A DNA stretch of 40,901 nucleotides from a virus. Lineage: Duplodnaviria > Heunggongvirae > Uroviricota > Caudoviricetes. A model generated the notes under the pieces. That model made no database searches, had not been told where the DNA came from, and worked only from the letters and a program-made list of their open reading frames with translations. Both the position numbers and the translations under genes were made by a program. The stretch is taken from positions 1 through 40,901 of IMG/VR virus record IMGVR_UViG_2563366888_000019, one strand, 5' to 3'. Shown here piece by piece: positions 1 to 10,221 of the stretch (position 1 is the stretch's first letter; every line of letters begins with the position of its first letter).

Positions 1-516
1 ATGAAATTTAAAAAATGTCTTCTGCCTGTGGCAATGTTAGCGTCATTCACTCTGGCAGGATGCCAGTCAAATGCTGACGATCATGCTGCCGATGTTTATC
101 AAACCGATCAACTGAATACCAAACAAGAAACTAAAACCGTTAATATTATTTCCATTCTTCCCGCAAAAGTTGCCGTAGACAACTCCCAAAATAAACGGAA
201 CGCACAAGCCTTCGGCGCGCTTATTGGCGCAGTCGCTGGCGGTGTTATCGGCCACAACGTCGGGTCTGGCAGCAATTCCGGAACGACGGCAGGTGCAGTT
301 GGCGGCGGAGCTGTAGGCGCGGCAGCGGGTTCTATGGTGAATGATAAAACCTTAGTGGAAGGTGTTTCTTTAACCTATAAGGAAGGCACCAAAGTGTATA
401 CCTCTACCCAGGTGGGTAAAGAGTGCCAGTTTACGACAGGTTTAGCCGTTGTTATTACCACGACGTATAACGAAACGCGTATTCAGCCAAATACCAAATG
501 TCCTGAAAAGAGCTAA
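1..516 (+). CDS. glycine-zipper lipoprotein (171 aa)
   Basis: ATG at position 1; signal peptide ending in lipobox LAGC; Gly/Ala-rich AVAGGVIGHNVGSG zipper segment; lies outside the phage late block. Confidence 0.6.
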   Translation: MKFKKCLLPVAMLASFTLAGCQSNADDHAADVYQTDQLNTKQETKTVNIISILPAKVAVDNSQNKRNAQAFGALIGAVAGGVIGHNVGSGSNSGTTAGAVGGGAVGAAAGSMVNDKTLVEGVSLTYKEGTKVYTSTQVGKECQFTTGLAVVITTTYNETRIQPNTKCPEKS

Positions 517-531
517 TAATCAGGAGGAGTC

Positions 532-1071
532 ATGAAGAAAGTTTTTCTTTGCGCCATCTTAGCCTCCTTAAGCTATCCGGCTATCGCCTCATCATTGCAG
601 GATCAACTCTCTGCTGTCGCAGAAGCGGAACAGCAAGGTAAAAATGAAGAGCAAAGGCAGCATGACGAATGGGTCGCGGAGCGCAACAGGGAAATCCAGC
701 AAGAGAAGCAACGTCGCGCAAATGCCCAGGCCGCCGCTAACAAAAGAGCGGCAACGGCAGCGGCAAATAAGAAAGCTCGTCAGGATAAACTGGACGCCGA
801 AGCCTCTGCGGACAAAAAACGCGATCAAAGTTATGAAGATGAGCTACGCAGCTTAGAGATTCAGAAACAAAAACTGGCGCTGGCGAAAGAAGAAGCCCGC
901 GTTAAGCGAGAAAACGAATTTATCGATCAGGAACTGAAGCACAAAGCTGCGCAAACCGATGTGGTGCAATCTGAAGCTGACGCCAACAGAAATATGACTG
1001 AAGGCGGTCGCGATCTGATGAAAAGCGTGGGCAAAGCAGAAGAGAACAAATCGGACAGCTGGTTTAATTAA
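532..1071 (+). CDS. secreted Ala/Lys/Glu/Gln-rich coiled-coil protein (179 aa), function unknown
   Basis: AGGAGG 6 nt upstream of ATG; N-terminal signal peptide; highly charged helical body. Confidence 0.55.
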   Translation: MKKVFLCAILASLSYPAIASSLQDQLSAVAEAEQQGKNEEQRQHDEWVAERNREIQQEKQRRANAQAAANKRAATAAANKKARQDKLDAEASADKKRDQSYEDELRSLEIQKQKLALAKEEARVKRENEFIDQELKHKAAQTDVVQSEADANRNMTEGGRDLMKSVGKAEENKSDSWFN

Positions 1072-1288: not shown

Positions 1289-1771
1289 CTATCTGGTCAG
1301 GGTGTCGTACTGTTTTTCACAGACTCTTCCGGCTTCGGCTGCCCGGTCAGCATACTCTGCCAGTTGTCTGTTTCTCTCGAGAGATTTACTGAGCACGTCG
1401 GCAAGCAAAACTCCGGTGTCTGCGGCTGACGTCCCAGCGCCGACAATGGCGTTATACTGCCTGAGCTGCTCACGGATGGCAACGAGCTGTTGCTGCAACC
1501 GGCCAGCGCGAGCGGCAGCATCAAGAGCATCATTGCGCGCCTGGTCGATCCTCTGCTGCGCTTCACGTTCATTGATCGCTTTCTCCTGTTCGTAGTGCTG
1601 ACGAATTCTCTCATCTTCGGTTTTGCGGTCTTCTTTCGCCTGCGCATACCCGGCGTCGTACTGACGACTGCCGTGTACACTCCAGGCAACAACTCCTGAT
1701 ATGACCAGAACAGCAAGCACCGCCATGATAATCAACTGTTTCCGGTATGCTTTTACGAATGCCCAGATCAT
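1289..1771 (-). CDS. Rz-like i-spanin (160 aa)
   Basis: N-terminal TM helix then Gln/Arg/Ala-rich coiled coil; ATG overlaps endolysin stop (ATGA); last gene of lysis cassette. Confidence 0.7.
1297..1533 (-). CDS. Rz1-like o-spanin lipoprotein embedded in +1 frame of Rz (78 aa)
   Basis: ATG-ATG start, lipobox LALAGC, Ser/Pro-rich mature part, wholly inside Rz and nearly co-terminal with it. Confidence 0.5.
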   Translation of the reverse strand: MMLLMLPLALAGCSNSSLPSVSSSGSITPLSALGRQPQTPEFCLPTCSVNLSRETDNWQSMLTGQPKPEESVKNSTTP

Positions 1772-2397
1772 ACCGCCAGCACCTTACTGGCATTGATGTA
1801 TCGCGCGCGCCGGTCGTCGATGCCGTTCCGGCCACCATTGATAATCAGAGTTACACGTGCAATATCGCCGGTATACTTCATGCATCCTTTGCTGGCAAAG
1901 AACCACGCCGCGCTACGAGCCGCGTATTCGTCCTGCGCCAGCAGTTCAGGACTCTCCAGCAGGTCAACCTTAAGACCGTTTCCACAGTCACGATAGTTAT
2001 TCAAACCGGTAACCTGGATAAGCCCGCGCCCACGGTAGTTCCAGCCATCACCAGGGGCATTGTTCCCCATGCGTTTGCTGTACACCAGATTGGCAATCGC
2101 TCTCTGGCGCTCAAGTGGCAATGGTGGTTCGCCTGCACGTCGCCCCAATGCGTTGGCCTGTCCCTGAGTGAGACGCCCAGCCCGAACAAAGTTAGCCAGT
2201 CCGCTGACGCTGTAGTTGAAATTCTCCTGCAACCGGGTGAAGCCTCCAGACTCATGCCCGACCTGAGCAATAAACATAGCCTGATCTTCTGGTTTGCTGA
2301 TACCAAACTCTTTCATCGCAGAAGTTATATGCGAGAACCAGCGTGCGGCCAGTGCCTCGCTGATACCAGCAGCTCGCTGGAATTGTTTAATCTCCAT
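1768..2397 (-). CDS. endolysin, glycoside hydrolase family 19 type (209 aa)
   Basis: [12 protein letters not shown] and [15 protein letters not shown] match GH19 signatures; GAGGT 6 nt upstream of ATG; no signal peptide. Confidence 0.85.
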
Positions 2398-2695
2398 GTT
2401 TAGACCTCGATACTTTAAAAATTTGAACGACGTTACCGCGCGTTTTAATAACCGCAGCCAGCATGACAGCGTTGATAATGACCTCAGATAAATCCACAGC
2501 CATTGGCGTACGTAACCAGATTGCATAGGCGACACGAACAGGAATACTGGCCGCAGCAACAATCAGGAAATAAGCAAGCCATCCTCCCCACCTTCGGTGT
2601 TGAGAGCCGTTACGCCGGAATGTGACAACGCGAATTGCTATGCCAGTGCAAATAACTGCATTGGTGATAAGCAAAAAAAACTCATGCGTTACCAT
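2387..2695 (-). CDS. holin-like small membrane protein (102 aa)
   Basis: 2-3 hydrophobic helices and charged C-terminus; immediately upstream of and overlapping endolysin start. Confidence 0.5.
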
Positions 2696-3086
2696 CGTCT
2701 TTTCTCCCCGGAATTAACTCGCGTGGATTATCGGAACGGTGATAGAGCCATATACCAATACGCACAGCGACAATTGCTGACACGAATGCGCCTGCAGAGA
2801 AAACAATCCCTTTTTCAAAAGAGTCCTGCGTGATGGTAGGGATCAGGCTGGCTATGCCGATAAGAATTGATGCTGCTGGTTTGTAAAAGAGAAGGCCGCA
2901 AAGAAAGCTGAGCATCGACAGGAGCACCCGGCGACGGATGGGGTACTCTACTGCAGAGGTAACAAAAATTACCGCTCCAGCCAAAGCACCCAAAGCAACC
3001 TCAGGAGGAACTCCTGCTATCACCGCCGCCAGAGAACTCATGCTAAGCCACTGATTTAAAGTTTCACTGGTTAGTTGAGCTGACAT
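2682..3086 (-). CDS. holin-like membrane protein (134 aa)
   Basis: 3-4 TM helices, charged tail [19 protein letters not shown]; GGTGG before ATG at 3086 (track start at 3095 is GTG). Confidence 0.55.
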   Translation of the reverse strand: MSAQLTSETLNQWLSMSSLAAVIAGVPPEVALGALAGAVIFVTSAVEYPIRRRVLLSMLSFLCGLLFYKPAASILIGIASLIPTITQDSFEKGIVFSAGAFVSAIVAVRIGIWLYHRSDNPRELIPGRKDDGNA

Positions 3087-3288
3087 GTTTTCCACCGTTT
3101 ATATGCATAACAACCTCCTGAACAGTAAAGCATTACGCATAATAAACCATTTATGGTTTTTTGTTACTTTAACATCGTCAATTCCCTGTTTTTCATGCCG
3201 AGAATAAAGCTCACCTTTTACATGACTCTGAAGAAACAAACAGTGAAGAGCAGGTTGAATACCGCACCATTTAATGGCGCGGTAGCAG

Positions 3289-3585
3289 TCAAATAGAGAA
3301 ATAAACACAAAAACAAAAAACAACAGGAACAGCAAAATCCAACAGACTTCCCACATCCCACACGCGTGGATCAAAACCTCCCCACCACGGCATGTTGATA
3401 CGTTTCCCTTTCCCAAACTTTTCTATCCAGCGATATTCTGCCTGGGTGTGTTCACGCGCAATGAAGAACGTACAACCGGCTATCGCACCGTAAGCCCAGT
3501 TTCCGGTAAAAATACCAACCAGTACCTGAGCCGCAAAAGCGCAAAGCGAGTGAAGAAATGGAGTGACATCAATGCTCTTAATCAT
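3289..3585 (-). CDS. small membrane protein translationally coupled to tailspike (98 aa)
   Basis: ATG overlaps tailspike stop (ATGA); hydrophobic helices. Confidence 0.45.
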   Translation of the reverse strand: MIKSIDVTPFLHSLCAFAAQVLVGIFTGNWAYGAIAGCTFFIAREHTQAEYRWIEKFGKGKRINMPWWGGFDPRVWDVGSLLDFAVPVVFCFCVYFSI

Positions 3586-5771
3586 GAAACTTCCCCATTG
3601 GTTGAAAATATGGCTCCTCCAACGCCAAGTGTATTTCGTGTTGTGCTCAACCTCAGAGGGCTGGAGTCAGAATTAGAATATCCTGTAGCAGAAATAAAAG
3701 ATCCTCCACTAATAGTCAACTGCGGAACATCGGCTATATCTGAATAAGTTCTGTCAGCAACAGTATTATTTATAGCCACATATGATCCAAAAAAACTTCT
3801 TATTGTTTGGTTTTTAACTTTACTTCCTTCAATGGTTATCCTACTACCACAGTCGGCAATAAATCCTGAATCTGCATCCAGCGTTGCATTCATAAAAGAA
3901 GCTTCAGATCTCTCTACATCAATCCATCTAATATCTTTTGTGGGATTTGCACCAAATACATGACAAATATTAGAGTTAAACCTTACACCATCTTGGAGGT
4001 GCATTAATTTTTTTATATCTGTACCCCATAGCCTTGGAAAATTAACAGATGCTCCTGCATGGCAATCAAATCCCAGCTCAGCCCCTGAGATATCTACAGC
4101 CTTTCCTGAAATAACAGCACCAGTGTCTGCATTAACGGCTGTTCCACAATTGCGCATATCATTACCAGCAACATCAACGCAACCCGCACCATCAATACGC
4201 ACACCAAGTGCACATCCATAAAAACCTTTTTCAATATTTGGTTCAAGGACTTTACCACTTGTTTCTGCATCACTTTCTTCAACGTCATGTCGTCTTGCAT
4301 CAACATATGCTGTATGAATGCAGGTTAATCCACGATATGAGCAATGTATAGTTTTATGGTCGCGTATATTAACATTTGAACCATCTCTTACATTCCATCC
4401 TATATAACAATAGATTGCACTTGACCCCTGAAAATCTGCTTTAACATTATAAATACAATTAACTGACGCAACCGTACTCTCTGTGCACCGTTCAAACTTG
4501 CTTACAGGCATTGATGCCTTGACATTATTTACCAGTTGCAGGGAAGAGTATCTGCTATAAGAAAAATCACATACGTAATATCCTTCTGGCATATATGCAG
4601 CAACACTTTCCTCATCAGGAGCACATCCGGTATGATATGCACTAATTTTTGCACCAAAACTACCATGAATTCCAACGTAGAACTTTCGAGCACCTGAATA
4701 CGGATAGAAATTAAGTTCAGCTTTTTGAGTTACAATAAATGCACAAACATCGCTATCATCTCTATTTTCTTCGATCTGAATAGCAAATACAGGACTTTTT
4801 GCTGCATCGCAAATGTAAAATAAATACTTGTATTCGTAATACGTTCTAACGATTTTAGTAAACAAACGAGTGTCAGAGAAAACCACTGAGTCTTCTGATG
4901 TTATTTTAATCCAAGACAAATCAACACCTGAACTGAATTCAATTTGATAGTTGATAATATGCCCGGTCTTAATTCTTATTTCGCAGAAAGCATTACCACC
5001 ATCCCACATAGGTCTCATTGACTGGGCTGCAATGATTGCATCTTTGAGTGTAGGGTAATCACCCCATTCGCCAACAGTAATAACAAAAGTATAATATGAG
5101 TTAAAAACAGCGGCATTTTTGCCTTTGGATATCAACTCCTTAATCATAAAAATATTATCTTCGTAATCACAAGGAGAAATTATATCCCTCATTTTGCTTT
5201 GAAATGTTCGTTGTCTTGCCCCGCTTCCTGACGGTATAAACCAACCAAAACCACCAACAACCCCGGCGATTGCAGCATCGACATAATTACGCATTGAGCG
5301 ATTATTTACAGCGTCCTGCTCAAATGATGGATCTGCAAGGTTAGAAATTTTGTTTTGCTTTGCATCGTAATATTTTGCAAGCAAAGATGGTTTCATCAAT
5401 GCACGTCTGAACCACCCAAAACATCGCTGGATCAGCATCGTCAGGTAGTCAAATGCATCTTCATGAACTTCGGGGAAAAATTTTCCCTGATTGCGAAGAT
5501 CAGTCTCCTGCACCACATCAAGCACACGCTCTATCGTAATTCGCCAGCCAGCAGCAAGCGGCGACGGGAGAACCACTTCACCGCCACTATAAGTGCCCGC
5601 TCCAGTTACCTTATAACCGGTATCCAGAACCAATTCTGTTACGTTCCCGTTCAGGTCAGACACCTGAACAACCAGGTCTGATTTTTTGAAAATACGGAAG
5701 GTATACGGAAACGATGTCGTAACGCCGTTACCGGTGTATTCGTTGTGGTCAACTTCGGTTGAGACCGTCAT
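3582..5771 (-). CDS. tailspike / tail fibre with T7-type N-terminal adaptor and beta-helix-like C-terminal domain (729 aa)
   Basis: N-terminal ~120 aa resemble the conserved podovirus tail-fibre adaptor domain; C-terminal part AT-rich, Gly/Asn/Ser/Cys-rich. Confidence 0.8.
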   Translation of the reverse strand: MTVSTEVDHNEYTGNGVTTSFPYTFRIFKKSDLVVQVSDLNGNVTELVLDTGYKVTGAGTYSGGEVVLPSPLAAGWRITIERVLDVVQETDLRNQGKFFPEVHEDAFDYLTMLIQRCFGWFRRALMKPSLLAKYYDAKQNKISNLADPSFEQDAVNNRSMRNYVDAAIAGVVGGFGWFIPSGSGARQRTFQSKMRDIISPCDYEDNIFMIKELISKGKNAAVFNSYYTFVITVGEWGDYPTLKDAIIAAQSMRPMWDGGNAFCEIRIKTGHIINYQIEFSSGVDLSWIKITSEDSVVFSDTRLFTKIVRTYYEYKYLFYICDAAKSPVFAIQIEENRDDSDVCAFIVTQKAELNFYPYSGARKFYVGIHGSFGAKISAYHTGCAPDEESVAAYMPEGYYVCDFSYSRYSSLQLVNNVKASMPVSKFERCTESTVASVNCIYNVKADFQGSSAIYCYIGWNVRDGSNVNIRDHKTIHCSYRGLTCIHTAYVDARRHDVEESDAETSGKVLEPNIEKGFYGCALGVRIDGAGCVDVAGNDMRNCGTAVNADTGAVISGKAVDISGAELGFDCHAGASVNFPRLWGTDIKKLMHLQDGVRFNSNICHVFGANPTKDIRWIDVERSEASFMNATLDADSGFIADCGSRITIEGSKVKNQTIRSFFGSYVAINNTVADRTYSDIADVPQLTISGGSFISATGYSNSDSSPLRLSTTRNTLGVGGAIFSTNGEVS

Positions 5772-5874
5772 GTTAAATCTCCAGATAGTCGCAGCACCCG
5801 TTGCGCCGCATATCTGGCTATTCTATTACCTGAAAAACCACATATGGATAGAAAGACTGTGAATACGAATAGAT

Positions 5875-5891
5875 ATTACCTTTCAGGTAAT
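5875..5891. promoter_or_regulatory. operator-like 17-bp palindrome ATTACCTTTCAGGTAAT (site 1, perfect)
   Basis: perfect 7-3-7 inverted repeat in divergent intergenic region between tailspike and antirepressor-like gene. Confidence 0.6.
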
Positions 5892-5927
5892 TTGCAAAAC
5901 GTGCTGGATAGCAAACAAATTATTTGC

Positions 5928-5947
5928 TACTGTATAAATATACAGTT
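5928..5947. promoter_or_regulatory. LexA (SOS) box TACTGTATAAATATACAGTT
   Basis: CTGT-N8-ACAG, 18/20 match to the E. coli consensus as recalled; ends 20 bp upstream of ATG 5967. Confidence 0.7.
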
Positions 5948-5966
5948 ATTGCATGGAGAAGATAAG

Positions 5967-6224
5967 ATGCAGCAGTATCACTATCCACTGGAAGACGGAT
6001 TTACCGAAAGGATTCACACGCCGGGAGGCGTCAGGTCACTGGTGGAGGGATCGCATTTGATGAAATTACTCCGGGATCTCGATAAGGATGGATTTAATGT
6101 CGATGGCCCACTTGCCGAACTGACTGCACTGATTAACTACGTCACCAGCTCACAGATGTCTATGCAGGATCTGCAAACACATCTCGACTATTGTGCCGAA
6201 CAATTACGAAAACAAACCACATAA
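5967..6224 (+). CDS. small antirepressor-like protein (85 aa), probably SOS-controlled
   Basis: GGAGAAG SD; LexA box in its promoter; ~40% identity by eye to the C-terminal domain of the Bro-N protein at 7693..8388. Confidence 0.55.
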   Translation: MQQYHYPLEDGFTERIHTPGGVRSLVEGSHLMKLLRDLDKDGFNVDGPLAELTALINYVTSSQMSMQDLQTHLDYCAEQLRKQTT

Positions 6225-6247: not shown

Positions 6248-6754
6248 TTAACAGTCGTAAAATTCTGGGTCCCACAAACTTGCATCGCGCGGCATGGATT
6301 CTAACTTTTTCAGCCGCAAAATTCTGTCACACTCGACAACTAATTTTTGCTTCTGCTCGTCAATTTCTACTGTCTTATGCGCTGGTTCATCCCAATAATC
6401 CAGAAGGAAGGCATGGCGTTCAGATGTGACCAGATAAATCACATACACGTCACTGGTTGGGATCTTTTTATGCTTGTTAGTGGTCTTGTCTTTCTTCCCA
6501 GACGCCCAGTTTTTCCAGCATTGTTCCGTACCGCTCTCACCAAACTTGTCAGTATAGTTTCCGATGTTTAAGTGAACGTGGCGTATGTGATATTCCAGCA
6601 TCTCTTTCGGTGGATCTCGAAACAGAGTGTCCTTTCCGAAATCCTTATGATGACCGTAGCGCCAGTGATCTATGAACGCGTTTTTGATAGGTATTAGCTC
6701 AGGGTCCTTCCCAAAAATTCCAGGGTGAACCAACCCCTGGAATTTATTCGGCAT
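6248..6754 (-). CDS. YafO-toxin-like protein, candidate toxin/abortive-infection effector (168 aa)
   Basis: IFGKD, YHIRHVHL and DEPAHK segments resemble the YafO mRNA interferase family as recalled from memory; overlaps upstream gene by 11 bp. Confidence 0.45.
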   Translation of the reverse strand: MPNKFQGLVHPGIFGKDPELIPIKNAFIDHWRYGHHKDFGKDTLFRDPPKEMLEYHIRHVHLNIGNYTDKFGESGTEQCWKNWASGKKDKTTNKHKKIPTSDVYVIYLVTSERHAFLLDYWDEPAHKTVEIDEQKQKLVVECDRILRLKKLESMPRDASLWDPEFYDC

Positions 6755-7271
6755 CGTCGTAGAGCTCCTGAGCCATGTCTTCAGCAGTGCGTGCAAACAT
6801 CCTGCGCGAGATTGCATGGGATTTCTCTACGGACATCTTTGGGACCTCATGCATAACAAGTTGATGAGTTTTCTCATCAACTTGAAGTGGCTTGTATAAA
6901 CGTTGCCACCTTTCGTTAATTTTATCCTTAAAGCCAGCGAAACCACTTTCCTGACTCTTGTATCCAAAATGAGATAAAGCCAAATTCCTTTCCATTTCAT
7001 TCCTAATGTACTCAGCAAGGTTGCAGTGGAATACTTCCCCTTGTTTTTTTAGGCATGCTTCATGGTCTGTAACACTGTGACGGCTCTCATATAAGTAAAT
7101 GCGATAGGAATTTTTATTATCCTCTTCTTCATAATTTCTAATCGCATCAGCAGTTGCCATAGCTGCAGCATAAGCGGCTGCTTCAATCACCATCTCTTGC
7201 TCTTTTTCTTTTTCAGGCCTTTTCAAGGCAAAGCGTCTATGCCTCATCGCTGTAACTCTCTTCGTGTTCAT
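6744..7271 (-). CDS. hypothetical protein, upstream partner of YafO-like gene (175 aa)
   Basis: AT-rich ORF, ATG at 7271 preceded by palindrome site 2; no recognisable motif. Confidence 0.5.
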   Translation of the reverse strand: MNTKRVTAMRHRRFALKRPEKEKEQEMVIEAAAYAAAMATADAIRNYEEEDNKNSYRIYLYESRHSVTDHEACLKKQGEVFHCNLAEYIRNEMERNLALSHFGYKSQESGFAGFKDKINERWQRLYKPLQVDEKTHQLVMHEVPKMSVEKSHAISRRMFARTAEDMAQELYDDAE

Positions 7272-7282
7272 GGGCACCCCCA

Positions 7283-7299
7283 ACTACCTTTAGGGTAAA
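7283..7299. promoter_or_regulatory. operator-like palindrome ACTACCTTTAGGGTAAA (site 2, degenerate)
   Basis: 12 bp upstream of ATG of 6744..7271. Confidence 0.45.
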
Positions 7300-9318: not shown

Positions 9319-9768
9319 CTACTTGCGAAATCTTTCTTTACCCTTCCAGCCAGTAGATGTTAGTTCAGGATGAATGGTTCCCAATATAAAGCCAACCATA
9401 GCGGAGCGAGGATCTTCTATTTTATCCGTTAATTCTTCGGCATAACTCACAGGCAACCAAGCAACAAGATCACCAATCCTCAGCTTTGGTCCTTTGCTGT
9501 AAGATGAATCGGCAATAACAAAAAATCCACCATCAGCTGAGCACACCTTCAGCATTGCCCTTTGTCTTCCAGAATCTAGCAAAACTGGCTGTTCCCCACT
9601 TGGACCAGGTATGATGATGGCTGGCATTGGTTTATTGGCTGAAAGGCTTGTGTCAAGATACTTACACGCATACTCAAAAGCTGAAAAGTTATCCTTAAAG
9701 ATAAGAGGTTGAATTTTATTGCTAACCTCCTTACCACCGATTAATCTGTTGATCATCTTCTTGAACAT
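9319..9768 (-). CDS. hypothetical protein (149 aa)
   Basis: AGGTGA SD before ATG 9768; no recognisable motif; part of cargo island. Confidence 0.5.
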   Translation of the reverse strand: MFKKMINRLIGGKEVSNKIQPLIFKDNFSAFEYACKYLDTSLSANKPMPAIIIPGPSGEQPVLLDSGRQRAMLKVCSADGGFFVIADSSYSKGPKLRIGDLVAWLPVSYAEELTDKIEDPRSAMVGFILGTIHPELTSTGWKGKERFRK

Positions 9769-9780
9769 AAAGGTCACCTA

Positions 9781-10221
9781 ATGATTAAGCCGATGCACGC
9801 TATTACAGCTACCGTTTTGTTTATCCTACCAATTTTTTCGTTTGCAAACGACATATGTTTTAAGAATTTAATAAATGAGGATATGTGTGCACATGCAAAC
9901 AAAATTGCATCAGAAGCAGGAAAGTCACTTCCCATAAAATTGAATGATAATATGTCTATTGTTTCAATAAATGCAATACTAAACAAACTTTTAGTTGTAG
10001 CGCATCTTAATTACAACAACAGCTATTTATCAAAAGTTTATAACGGTGATGTAACCTTAGAAAATAAATTAAAGAGTGTAATGCGAAATTATTCAAAATC
10101 GAGCATTTGCTCCAACAGGCAAATGAAAGCATTTATTCACCTTGGCGGAGAGATTGAATATAGATATGTATTTAGTGATGGCAATATATTTGATACATAC
10201 GCCATCACTAATTGTGAATAG
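9781..10221 (+). CDS. secreted hypothetical protein (146 aa), very AT-rich
   Basis: N-terminal signal peptide; Asn/Ile/Lys-rich; composition unlike the flanking structural genes. Confidence 0.5.
   Translation: MIKPMHAITATVLFILPIFSFANDICFKNLINEDMCAHANKIASEAGKSLPIKLNDNMSIVSINAILNKLLVVAHLNYNNSYLSKVYNGDVTLENKLKSVMRNYSKSSICSNRQMKAFIHLGGEIEYRYVFSDGNIFDTYAITNCE

Follow-up and report, generated by a model that had tools for sequence, protein, structure and literature searches.

We examined the tailspike locus of a 40,901-nt viral sequence (positions 1 to 40,901 of IMG/VR virus record IMGVR_UViG_2563366888_000019), referred to here in its entirety as the window. Two minus-strand genes make up this locus: a tailspike gene (3582-5771), with an open reading frame (ORF) of 729 amino acids (aa), and a small gene (3289-3585), with an ORF of 98 aa, which encodes a predicted membrane protein assigned to the PHROG family phrog_1443. 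They are joined on the minus strand by a stop/start overlap at 3582..3585, in which the TGA of the spike gene and the ATG of the small gene share the tetranucleotide ATGA. Both ORFs and the overlap are read directly in the sequence, as they had been in an earlier reading of the locus made without database searches (hereafter the sequence-only reading). Gene order and sequence indicate that the window is an epsilon15/phiV10-like (Uetakevirus) E. coli prophage inserted beside yfgI. The analysis below indicates that the spike is a three-part mosaic in which a conserved anchor is joined to a horizontally acquired, AT-rich receptor-binding domain (RBD), and we consider a Uetakevirus prophage spike with a swapped RBD and a trailing family gene to be the probable full explanation of the locus.

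Anatomy of the tailspike

The spike can be divided into three parts, all encoded on the minus strand. Residues 1-203 (5163..5771) form an N-terminal anchor of the epsilon15/phiV10 type, the part that would attach the spike to the tail; residues 204-275 (4947..5162; GC content 36.6%) are a diverged proximal part of the receptor-binding module that lies within the confidently modelled region; and residues 276-729 (3582..4946) form the right-handed β-helix RBD, a putative polysaccharide-binding or depolymerase domain by analogy with other tailspikes. Identity to related spikes changes in steps along these parts. Relative to the spike of the Uetakevirus phiv142-3, aa identity is 94.9% over residues 1-178, 64% over residues 179-203 and ~18% over the remainder, while relative to the tail spike of the P22-like phage JEP4 (Lederbergvirus) it is 19% over residues 1-203, 44% over residues 204-275 and 98.2% over residues 276-729. 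The nucleotide sequence follows the same pattern: window 5236-6224 is 96.3% identical to phiv142-3, and window 3326-4954 is 97.8% identical to JEP4 over 1631 bp by blastn (98.0% by megablast). The latter block (3326..4954, minus strand), which both blastn and megablast find in the Lederbergviruses JEP4 and HZ41, holds the RBD and the small gene up to ~codon 87 and runs across the junction between the two genes.

Base composition shifts as well. The window has a GC content of 48.5% and the anchor (residues 1-203) one of 45.8%, compared to 37.7% for residues 204-729, and the GC content at third codon positions (GC3) of residues 276-729 is 22%. Only 0.25% of the 1581-bp segments of the 40.9-kb sequence have a GC content below that of residues 204-729, and all of these overlap the same region. 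The sequence-only reading had described the distal part as AT-rich and rich in Gly, Asn, Ser and Cys. Its AT-richness is borne out and, to a modest degree, so is the enrichment in Ser (9.7% versus 6.9%) and Cys (3.0%, or 16 residues, versus 1.0%), but Gly is equal and Asn is barely higher.

The length of the anchor is indicated by several comparisons. Whereas phrog_5662 covers the whole spike (1-729 of 729), 21 other PHROG tail families match the N-terminus alone, over spans from 1-166 up to 1-206. Residues 1-202 match Dpo31/Dpo36 in the PDB (28lx, 8ck1; E = 7.9e-32), and phiV10 shows 94.3% nucleotide identity over a region that takes in the first ~390 nt of the spike gene. The PHROG spans and the identity to phiv142-3 up to residue 178 give an anchor of ~180-200 aa (178-203) instead of the ~120 residues proposed in the sequence-only reading, consistent with the 205 aa taken for the phiV10 anchor in published work on the anchor/RBD modularity of Uetakeviruses (Pas et al. 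2023, PMC10408124). This module would dock the single tailspike on the virion tail. The label "T7-type" that had been given to it is weakly supported by sequence comparison. A Pfam scan of the whole spike gave no match at E <= 0.01, and the isolated anchor scored 16.5 bits on PF03906 (E = 0.007), which is below the gathering threshold of 25.2 bits. However, PF03906 was matched by 11 of 11 anchor homologues (best E = 2.2e-7) and no other Pfam family was matched consistently. An hhalign comparison of the anchor with one T7-type N-terminus returned a probability of 0.1%, which, as a single-sequence comparison, is a weak test. The P22 head-binding domain PF09008 finds no match in the spike, whose N-terminus is 19% identical to that of JEP4; only the C-terminal RBD is common to the two.

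The distal part was expected to resemble a β-helix, and structure prediction agrees. The AlphaFold2 model of the spike, computed as a monomer from an alignment of 25 sequences, has pLDDT (predicted local distance difference test) values >90 over most of residues 230-729 with many β-strands, and the C-terminal domain is read as a right-handed β-helix. The N-terminus is poorly modelled because few of the aligned sequences include it. A large protein search found only 24 clusters homologous to the RBD, and a profile scan of genome contigs with the RBD alignment found a single remote match. The N-termini of these homologues are diverse: PF09008, PF18668 (Tail_spike_N), PF12571 (P2 tail-collar), PF03906, the window-type anchor, or no known anchor. 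Near-identical RBD copies lie behind the P22-type head-binding domain of JEP4 and in the 130-kb myovirus 92CQ, in which the distal part of the spike is conserved at 97.8% nucleotide identity, and the T7-like locus L009 and the SP6-like locus L011 carry the RBD at ~50% aa identity. Judged from these sequences, the RBD is a mobile, widely exchanged cassette. Two homologues (P0135 and P0138; loci L006/L007, 4001-6592) also contain an SGNH/GDSL esterase domain, located between the anchor and the β-helix, which suggests that a deacetylase activity is combined with the RBD in these proteins.

That the spike might instead be non-recombinant, its composition shift and divergence being due to rapid change of the distal part in a single lineage, is a proposal that we regard as extremely improbable. 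Receptor-binding domains do evolve fast, and a full-length family, phrog_5662, exists (match 1-729). Yet the distal part shares 98% identity with a spike that belongs to a phage of another genus and has an unrelated N-terminus, the same domain is found behind T7-, P2- and Tail_spike_N-type anchors, and a GC3 of 22% is out of character for this prophage. The identity steps, the swapping of anchors and GC3 all contradict a single-lineage origin. Full-length homology to one known spike, together with uniform composition, had been named as the pattern opposed to a mosaic; full-length matches do exist, to phrog_5662 and to phage HEMP4, but both represent this very mosaic allele, and composition differs along the gene. 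The proposal of a conserved anchor with a swapped, AT-rich RBD is thus upheld by the stepwise identity and by the GC content of 37.7% against 48.5%. The phenomenon itself is well known among tailspikes and this allele is already in databases, making it an ordinary mosaic. Its practical interest is that an RBD subtype that occurs behind at least five anchor types should graft readily in phage or tailocin engineering.

Fold and established tailspike behavior suggest that the spike, as a trimer, would bind and probably cleave or modify a surface polysaccharide and so bring the virion to the outer membrane. Three lysogens that contain this exact spike, E. coli GN02461, PD23 and 118UI (L206, L207 and L208), have O-antigen clusters of the O25 family (with a frameshifted wzy), O83 and O15, respectively. 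A single O serogroup is not predictable for the spike because the clusters of its lysogens differ in this way, and assignment of the RBD to a serogroup by the rule that the lysogen is the host was rejected on the same grounds. These O types hint at a receptor other than one O serogroup, and the spike may recognize something other than a single O antigen. In a fourth lysogen that was probed the locus was missed, as the prophage is integrated elsewhere.

The small gene and its position behind receptor-binding genes

The small protein matches phrog_1443, a PHROG family of unknown function, with E = 2.5e-55 (residues 5-98 on profile positions 1-94 of 97), and the homology searches led to no family of known function. 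The protein has no match in Pfam, NCBIfam, PADLOC or a PDB sequence search; Pfam was also run on 53 family members with E up to 10, one of which matched a holin family weakly. Comparison with described superinfection-exclusion, defense and O-antigen-modification families revealed no sequence or fold likeness, fold searches returned generic helical matches only, and our literature search found no characterized membrane protein trailing a receptor-binding protein (RBP) gene and nothing relevant on phage HEMP4. The AlphaFold2 model (pLDDT 93.9) has helices at residues 8-27, 30-57 and 78-97, and hydrophobic stretches are located at residues 8-27, 30-43 and 78-97. The protein is thus predicted to be a three-helix inner-membrane protein, in keeping with its earlier description as a membrane protein that is not a standard tail component. 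The polar loop 44-77 contains a mean of 5.4 Lys/Arg across the family, while the hydrophobic C-terminus contains a mean of 0.59. Because the loop is Lys/Arg-rich, the positive-inside rule suggests that it is cytoplasmic, with the N-terminus inside and the C-terminus outside.

The family is compact and strongly conserved. A profile search of 1.84 billion representatives found 455 clusters at 50% identity; among the best 150 of these, the proteins are stand-alone, 58-146 aa in length, with no sign of domain fusion. An alignment of 116 diverse members defines the core motif H12...G-R-E-x-x-Q-A-E-Y-R-x-I...R62...W76...P87, of which R44, E45, Q48, A49, E50, W76 and P87 are kept in at least 95%. Conservation of the core across these diverse members indicates that the small protein is under purifying selection. 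Within E. coli, the protein is 80-88% identical behind unrelated RBDs.

The small gene has one constant neighbor, a co-directional receptor-binding gene that directly precedes it. Among viral contigs of E. coli, the small gene trails genes for epsilon15-type spikes of 709, 729, 766, 771, 913 and 924 aa, and the four non-729 spike classes that were scanned with Pfam have a pectate-lyase-like domain at the start. It also follows a P22-type spike and lambdoid short fibers of 227, 234 and 346 aa with an S74 chaperone domain; in phage 21 and PhiR55_1 it is found near the end of the side-tail-fiber gene cluster; and it follows RBPs in a P2-like Aeromonas prophage, a further P2-like contig, a siphophage and a Comamonas prophage. 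We extended this survey to 80 distant viral loci with 36-57% identity to a divergent query, found with a narrower alignment since the wider one was too diverse; the most distant members, on contigs of ~1.1 kb, were uninformative for context. A co-directional ORF of at least 350 aa ends within 1.2 kb upstream of the small gene in 63 of 78 distant loci, compared to 16 of 60 other small ORFs in the same loci, and of the upstream ORFs that were sampled, 9 of 10 belong to PHROG tail-fiber or tail-spike families. In the lambdoid loci L003 (4710-4988) and L005 (3029-3298), a gene of phrog_1361, a ~90-aa family of unknown function, overlaps the end of the side-tail-fiber gene, upstream of the phrog_1443 gene.

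Downstream of the small gene, by contrast with this constant neighbor, the content varies: lysis genes in the window, integrase in JEP4, more tail genes in P2-like loci and umuDC-like cargo in several others. The umuDC-like genes, encoding an IMS-family polymerase and an S24/UmuD-like protein, are found just past the small gene in L007 (7523-8785), L119 (7248-8795), L132 (5359-7367) and L139/L145 (~5200 to the locus end); the umuD-like label, like the endolysin-like label used below for distant loci, is our own reading of the sequences. These arrangements suggest that the spot past the small gene is a cargo insertion site.

All complete homologues of the RBD that came from temperate contexts are trailed by the small gene, namely in the epsilon15-type, P22-type and L108/L111 (60% identity) groups, the P2-like Aeromonas prophage and the siphophage. 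Three lytic loci with the same RBD (T7-like L009, SP6-like L011 and myovirus 92CQ) have no small-gene homologue adjoining the RBD gene. In 92CQ an unrelated 81-aa membrane protein occupies the position, and 92CQ is absent among the 60 best of 81 phage records that match the small protein (E up to 10).

At the junction the spike gene ends in GTT TCA TGA and the small gene begins with ATG ATT AAG in the +1 register, with a Shine-Dalgarno-like GGGGAAG just upstream of the small-gene start. JEP4, locus L008 (Aeromonas, P2-like) and 14 of the 80 distant loci have the 4-nt stop/start overlap as well. In phiv142-3, which has another RBD, 76 bp with a terminator-like hairpin separate the tail fiber gene from the small gene (L002, 2448-2523); the overlap is thus a property specific to the RBD block that JEP4 also has. 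The sole promoter-like site in phiv142-3 overlaps the start codon of the small gene. The PGAP annotation of a near-identical prophage (L123, 20290-20574) gives the small gene 94 aa, starting it four codons later and without the spike overlap; in the window, the ATG at 3585 is the only in-frame start codon near 3573-3585.

The small gene also bears on how the RBD is exchanged. Nucleotide identity is 88% between window 3000-3572 and phiv142-3 and 85% between 3320-3573 and lambdoid phages, whereas the RBDs between these arms are unrelated. The point of crossover with JEP4 is at ~codon 87 of the small gene, and the spike locus hence documents a crossover outside the RBP gene. In an exchange of the RBD cassette, the anchor would provide the 5' homology arm and the conserved small-gene sequence the 3' arm, a role that the small-gene DNA looks like it could fill.

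Function of the small protein

The sequence-only reading had offered a chaperone as one role for the small protein. We consider it very probable that the protein is not a chaperone specific to this RBD, since the RBD occurs without the gene in the three lytic loci, and an 80-88% identical protein occurs behind unrelated RBDs; in all, the gene is found behind at least six other RBD types and several fiber types. The same evidence makes it unlikely that the protein is a receptor-specific lysogenic-conversion factor that alters or blocks the glycan recognized by the adjacent RBD, as do phiV10 Oac, P22 GtrABC and the epsilon15 conversion genes. This is despite the position of the gene, which occupies the exact slot of phiV10 oac, between tail fiber and holin-like genes, despite its presence behind all complete temperate-context RBD homologues found, and despite the statement in PMC10408124 that O-antigen modification genes are possible behind the RBP in such phages. 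Near-identical copies (80-88%) trail five or more other RBDs that are unrelated, and S74-type fibers too, so that the protein cannot be paired with one receptor. Moreover, at 98 aa, with no acyltransferase, Gtr or Wzy similarity, it is too small for a known modifying enzyme, and its gene is co-oriented and overlapping with a late gene, while oac is on the opposite strand.

The location of the gene could also recall lysis or tail assembly. As a small protein with three hydrophobic helices, encoded directly upstream of two holin-family genes and an endolysin gene, it might be a lysis-timing membrane protein (a holin, antiholin or similar) of the adjacent lysis cassette (1289..3095, minus strand); L126 and L143 place it between the RBP and endolysin-like genes, and in T7-like phages a holin comes right after the fiber gene. 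Nevertheless, in JEP4 its neighbors are the tail spike and the integrase, phage 21 and the P2-like loci L008/L120 have it in the tail-fiber region with no annotated lysis gene alongside, and phiV10 has the same lysis cassette without it. Nor does the protein resemble a holin in its ends: it has a long, highly conserved polar loop rather than the charged C-terminal tail typical of holins, and the holin Pfam match is weak and confined to 1 of 53 members. We therefore view a lysis role as improbable; the hydrophobic C-terminus, and the RBP gene as only constant neighbor, speak against a holin identity, the membrane helices notwithstanding. A general factor for folding or mounting RBPs appears to us quite unlikely. 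Its place directly 3' of RBP genes, frequently with a 4-nt stop/start overlap, is constant and is the usual one for tail-fiber assembly genes, and a weak match in phiHAP-1 overlaps a gene annotated as tail fiber assembly protein. Known fiber chaperones, however, are soluble, while this is an integral membrane protein by prediction; the three lytic loci examined have the same RBD with no such neighbor; the partner RBPs have unrelated folds; the S74 fibers already have an intramolecular chaperone domain; and none of the chaperone families in Pfam or PHROG matches the protein.

On our best reading of these data, the small protein is an accessory protein of the inner membrane that is produced along with the late gene products and acts on a conserved host component. 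As to its specific function, superinfection exclusion or entry blocking at the host inner membrane or envelope is a tentative suggestion that we put well short of even chances. A generic exclusion protein of this kind would shield infected or lysogenic cells, or progeny, whatever receptor the phage uses. More speculatively, phrog_1443 could represent an unrecognized class of inner-membrane factor with a functional link to receptor-binding genes that holds for five or more types of tail (lambdoid, P22-like, epsilon15-like, P2-like and other siphophages), whose gene doubles as a 3' arm and whose product is either a generic late exclusion/immunity protein or a membrane factor that handles RBPs. 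Several observations weigh against an accessory, RBP-linked factor of this sort. The stop/start overlap with a late structural gene points to late expression and not to expression in the lysogen, which fits a classic lysogen-protecting exclusion gene poorly, and no convincing promoter for the small gene was found upstream inside the spike gene. In Aeromonas phages, moreover, weak homologues of the protein are encoded away from the tail genes. Finally, the position past tail-fiber genes is a general insertion hot spot, and the synteny may partly reflect location, not function.

The trailing gene family is a modest lead: compact, strongly conserved and uncharacterized, and placed right after receptor-binding genes in many temperate phages of Gamma- and Betaproteobacteria. 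If it does encode an exclusion or RBP-linked factor, a recurrent phage genome architecture would be explained, which would matter for host-range prediction and for engineering by RBP swapping.

Prophage setting and comparison with known systems

The wider window is in accord with its placement among the Uetakeviruses. The PGAP annotation of a genome with a 98.9%-identical copy of the prophage places the host genes yfgH and yfgI in the stretch equivalent to window 1-1071, and this region is therefore one end of the prophage. Gene order and sequence agree with those of the Uetakeviruses phiv142-3 and phiV10: there is one RBP gene, located between the antirepressor region and a holin/endolysin/Rz cassette in a ~39-kb epsilon15-like genome. 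The lysis cassette lies directly downstream of the spike locus, is arranged in the same gene order in phiV10 and is composed, by Pfam and PHROG matches, of Phage_holin_8-like and Phage_holin_3_7 holin genes, a GH19 endolysin and a DUF2514/Rz-like spanin. The remaining virion genes are present in the PGAP annotation of the 98.9%-identical prophage. The same mosaic spike is found in phage HEMP4 (99.1% identity, with 98% of a 3.3-kb query covered) and in 11 of 5426 complete E. coli genomes.

Two further regions of the window stand apart from the spike locus. A second AT-rich island (9319-10221; GC 0.32-0.37 in 500-bp windows) consists of two divergent ORFs of function-unknown families, phrog_9944 (9319-9777, minus strand) and phrog_8772 (9781-10221, plus strand), and is probably acquired cargo. 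A minus-strand ORF at 6248-6817 is labeled a YafO-family type II toxin by PGAP in the near-identical prophage, and the ORF upstream of and overlapping it (6744-7283, minus strand) could be its partner. Neither ORF has a Pfam or NCBIfam match, and the PADLOC matches of the latter are weak only (cyclase, Cmr1 and Csx1; E 4e-4 to 4e-3).

Compared to known systems, the window spike is closest in build to the Uetakevirus tailspikes of epsilon15, phiV10 and phiv142-3, with which it shares the anchor, the modular organization and the place upstream of a holin/endolysin/Rz cassette. It has a different RBD subtype than phiV10 (O157) and phiv142-3 do, and its lysogens span O25, O83 and O15. Exchange of RBDs between Uetakeviruses and Lederbergviruses has been published (PMC10408124). 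In the Lederbergviruses JEP4 and HZ41, the C-terminal 454 residues of the spike are 98% identical to those of the window, and the spike gene is likewise followed by the small gene, across an identical ATGA overlap. JEP4 differs in its P22 head-binding N-terminus (PF09008 in the related cluster P0122) and in the location of the gene pair beside the integrase rather than lysis genes. The published synteny analysis of these genera noted little similarity downstream of the RBP gene (PMC10408124), whereas the window has a conserved small gene there. More distant are gp15 of Staphylococcus phage Andhra (PDB 8egr) and other β-helix tailspikes and depolymerases; Andhra gp15 is 16% identical to the window spike and comes from a phage of a Gram-positive host, with no common catalytic motif established. 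The window anchor has in common with the N-terminal domain of T7 gp17 (PF03906) its role as a podophage tail-attachment module, although its score is under threshold (16.5 versus 25.2 bits).

For the small gene, the nearest parallels in position are phiV10 oac, P22 gtrABC and the epsilon15 conversion genes, which occupy the same slot behind the RBP gene of a temperate podophage. Unlike these, it has late-gene strand and overlap and is not paired to one RBD, and there is no similarity in sequence or size. Other phages have exclusion genes that lie beside the receptor-binding gene and encode small envelope proteins, as do llp of T5 and cor of phi80 and N15. As lipoproteins or proteins of the outer membrane, Llp and Cor block a single protein receptor, FhuA, and they vary with the RBP. 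The small protein of the window, by contrast, is predicted to reside in the inner membrane and is constant across RBP types.

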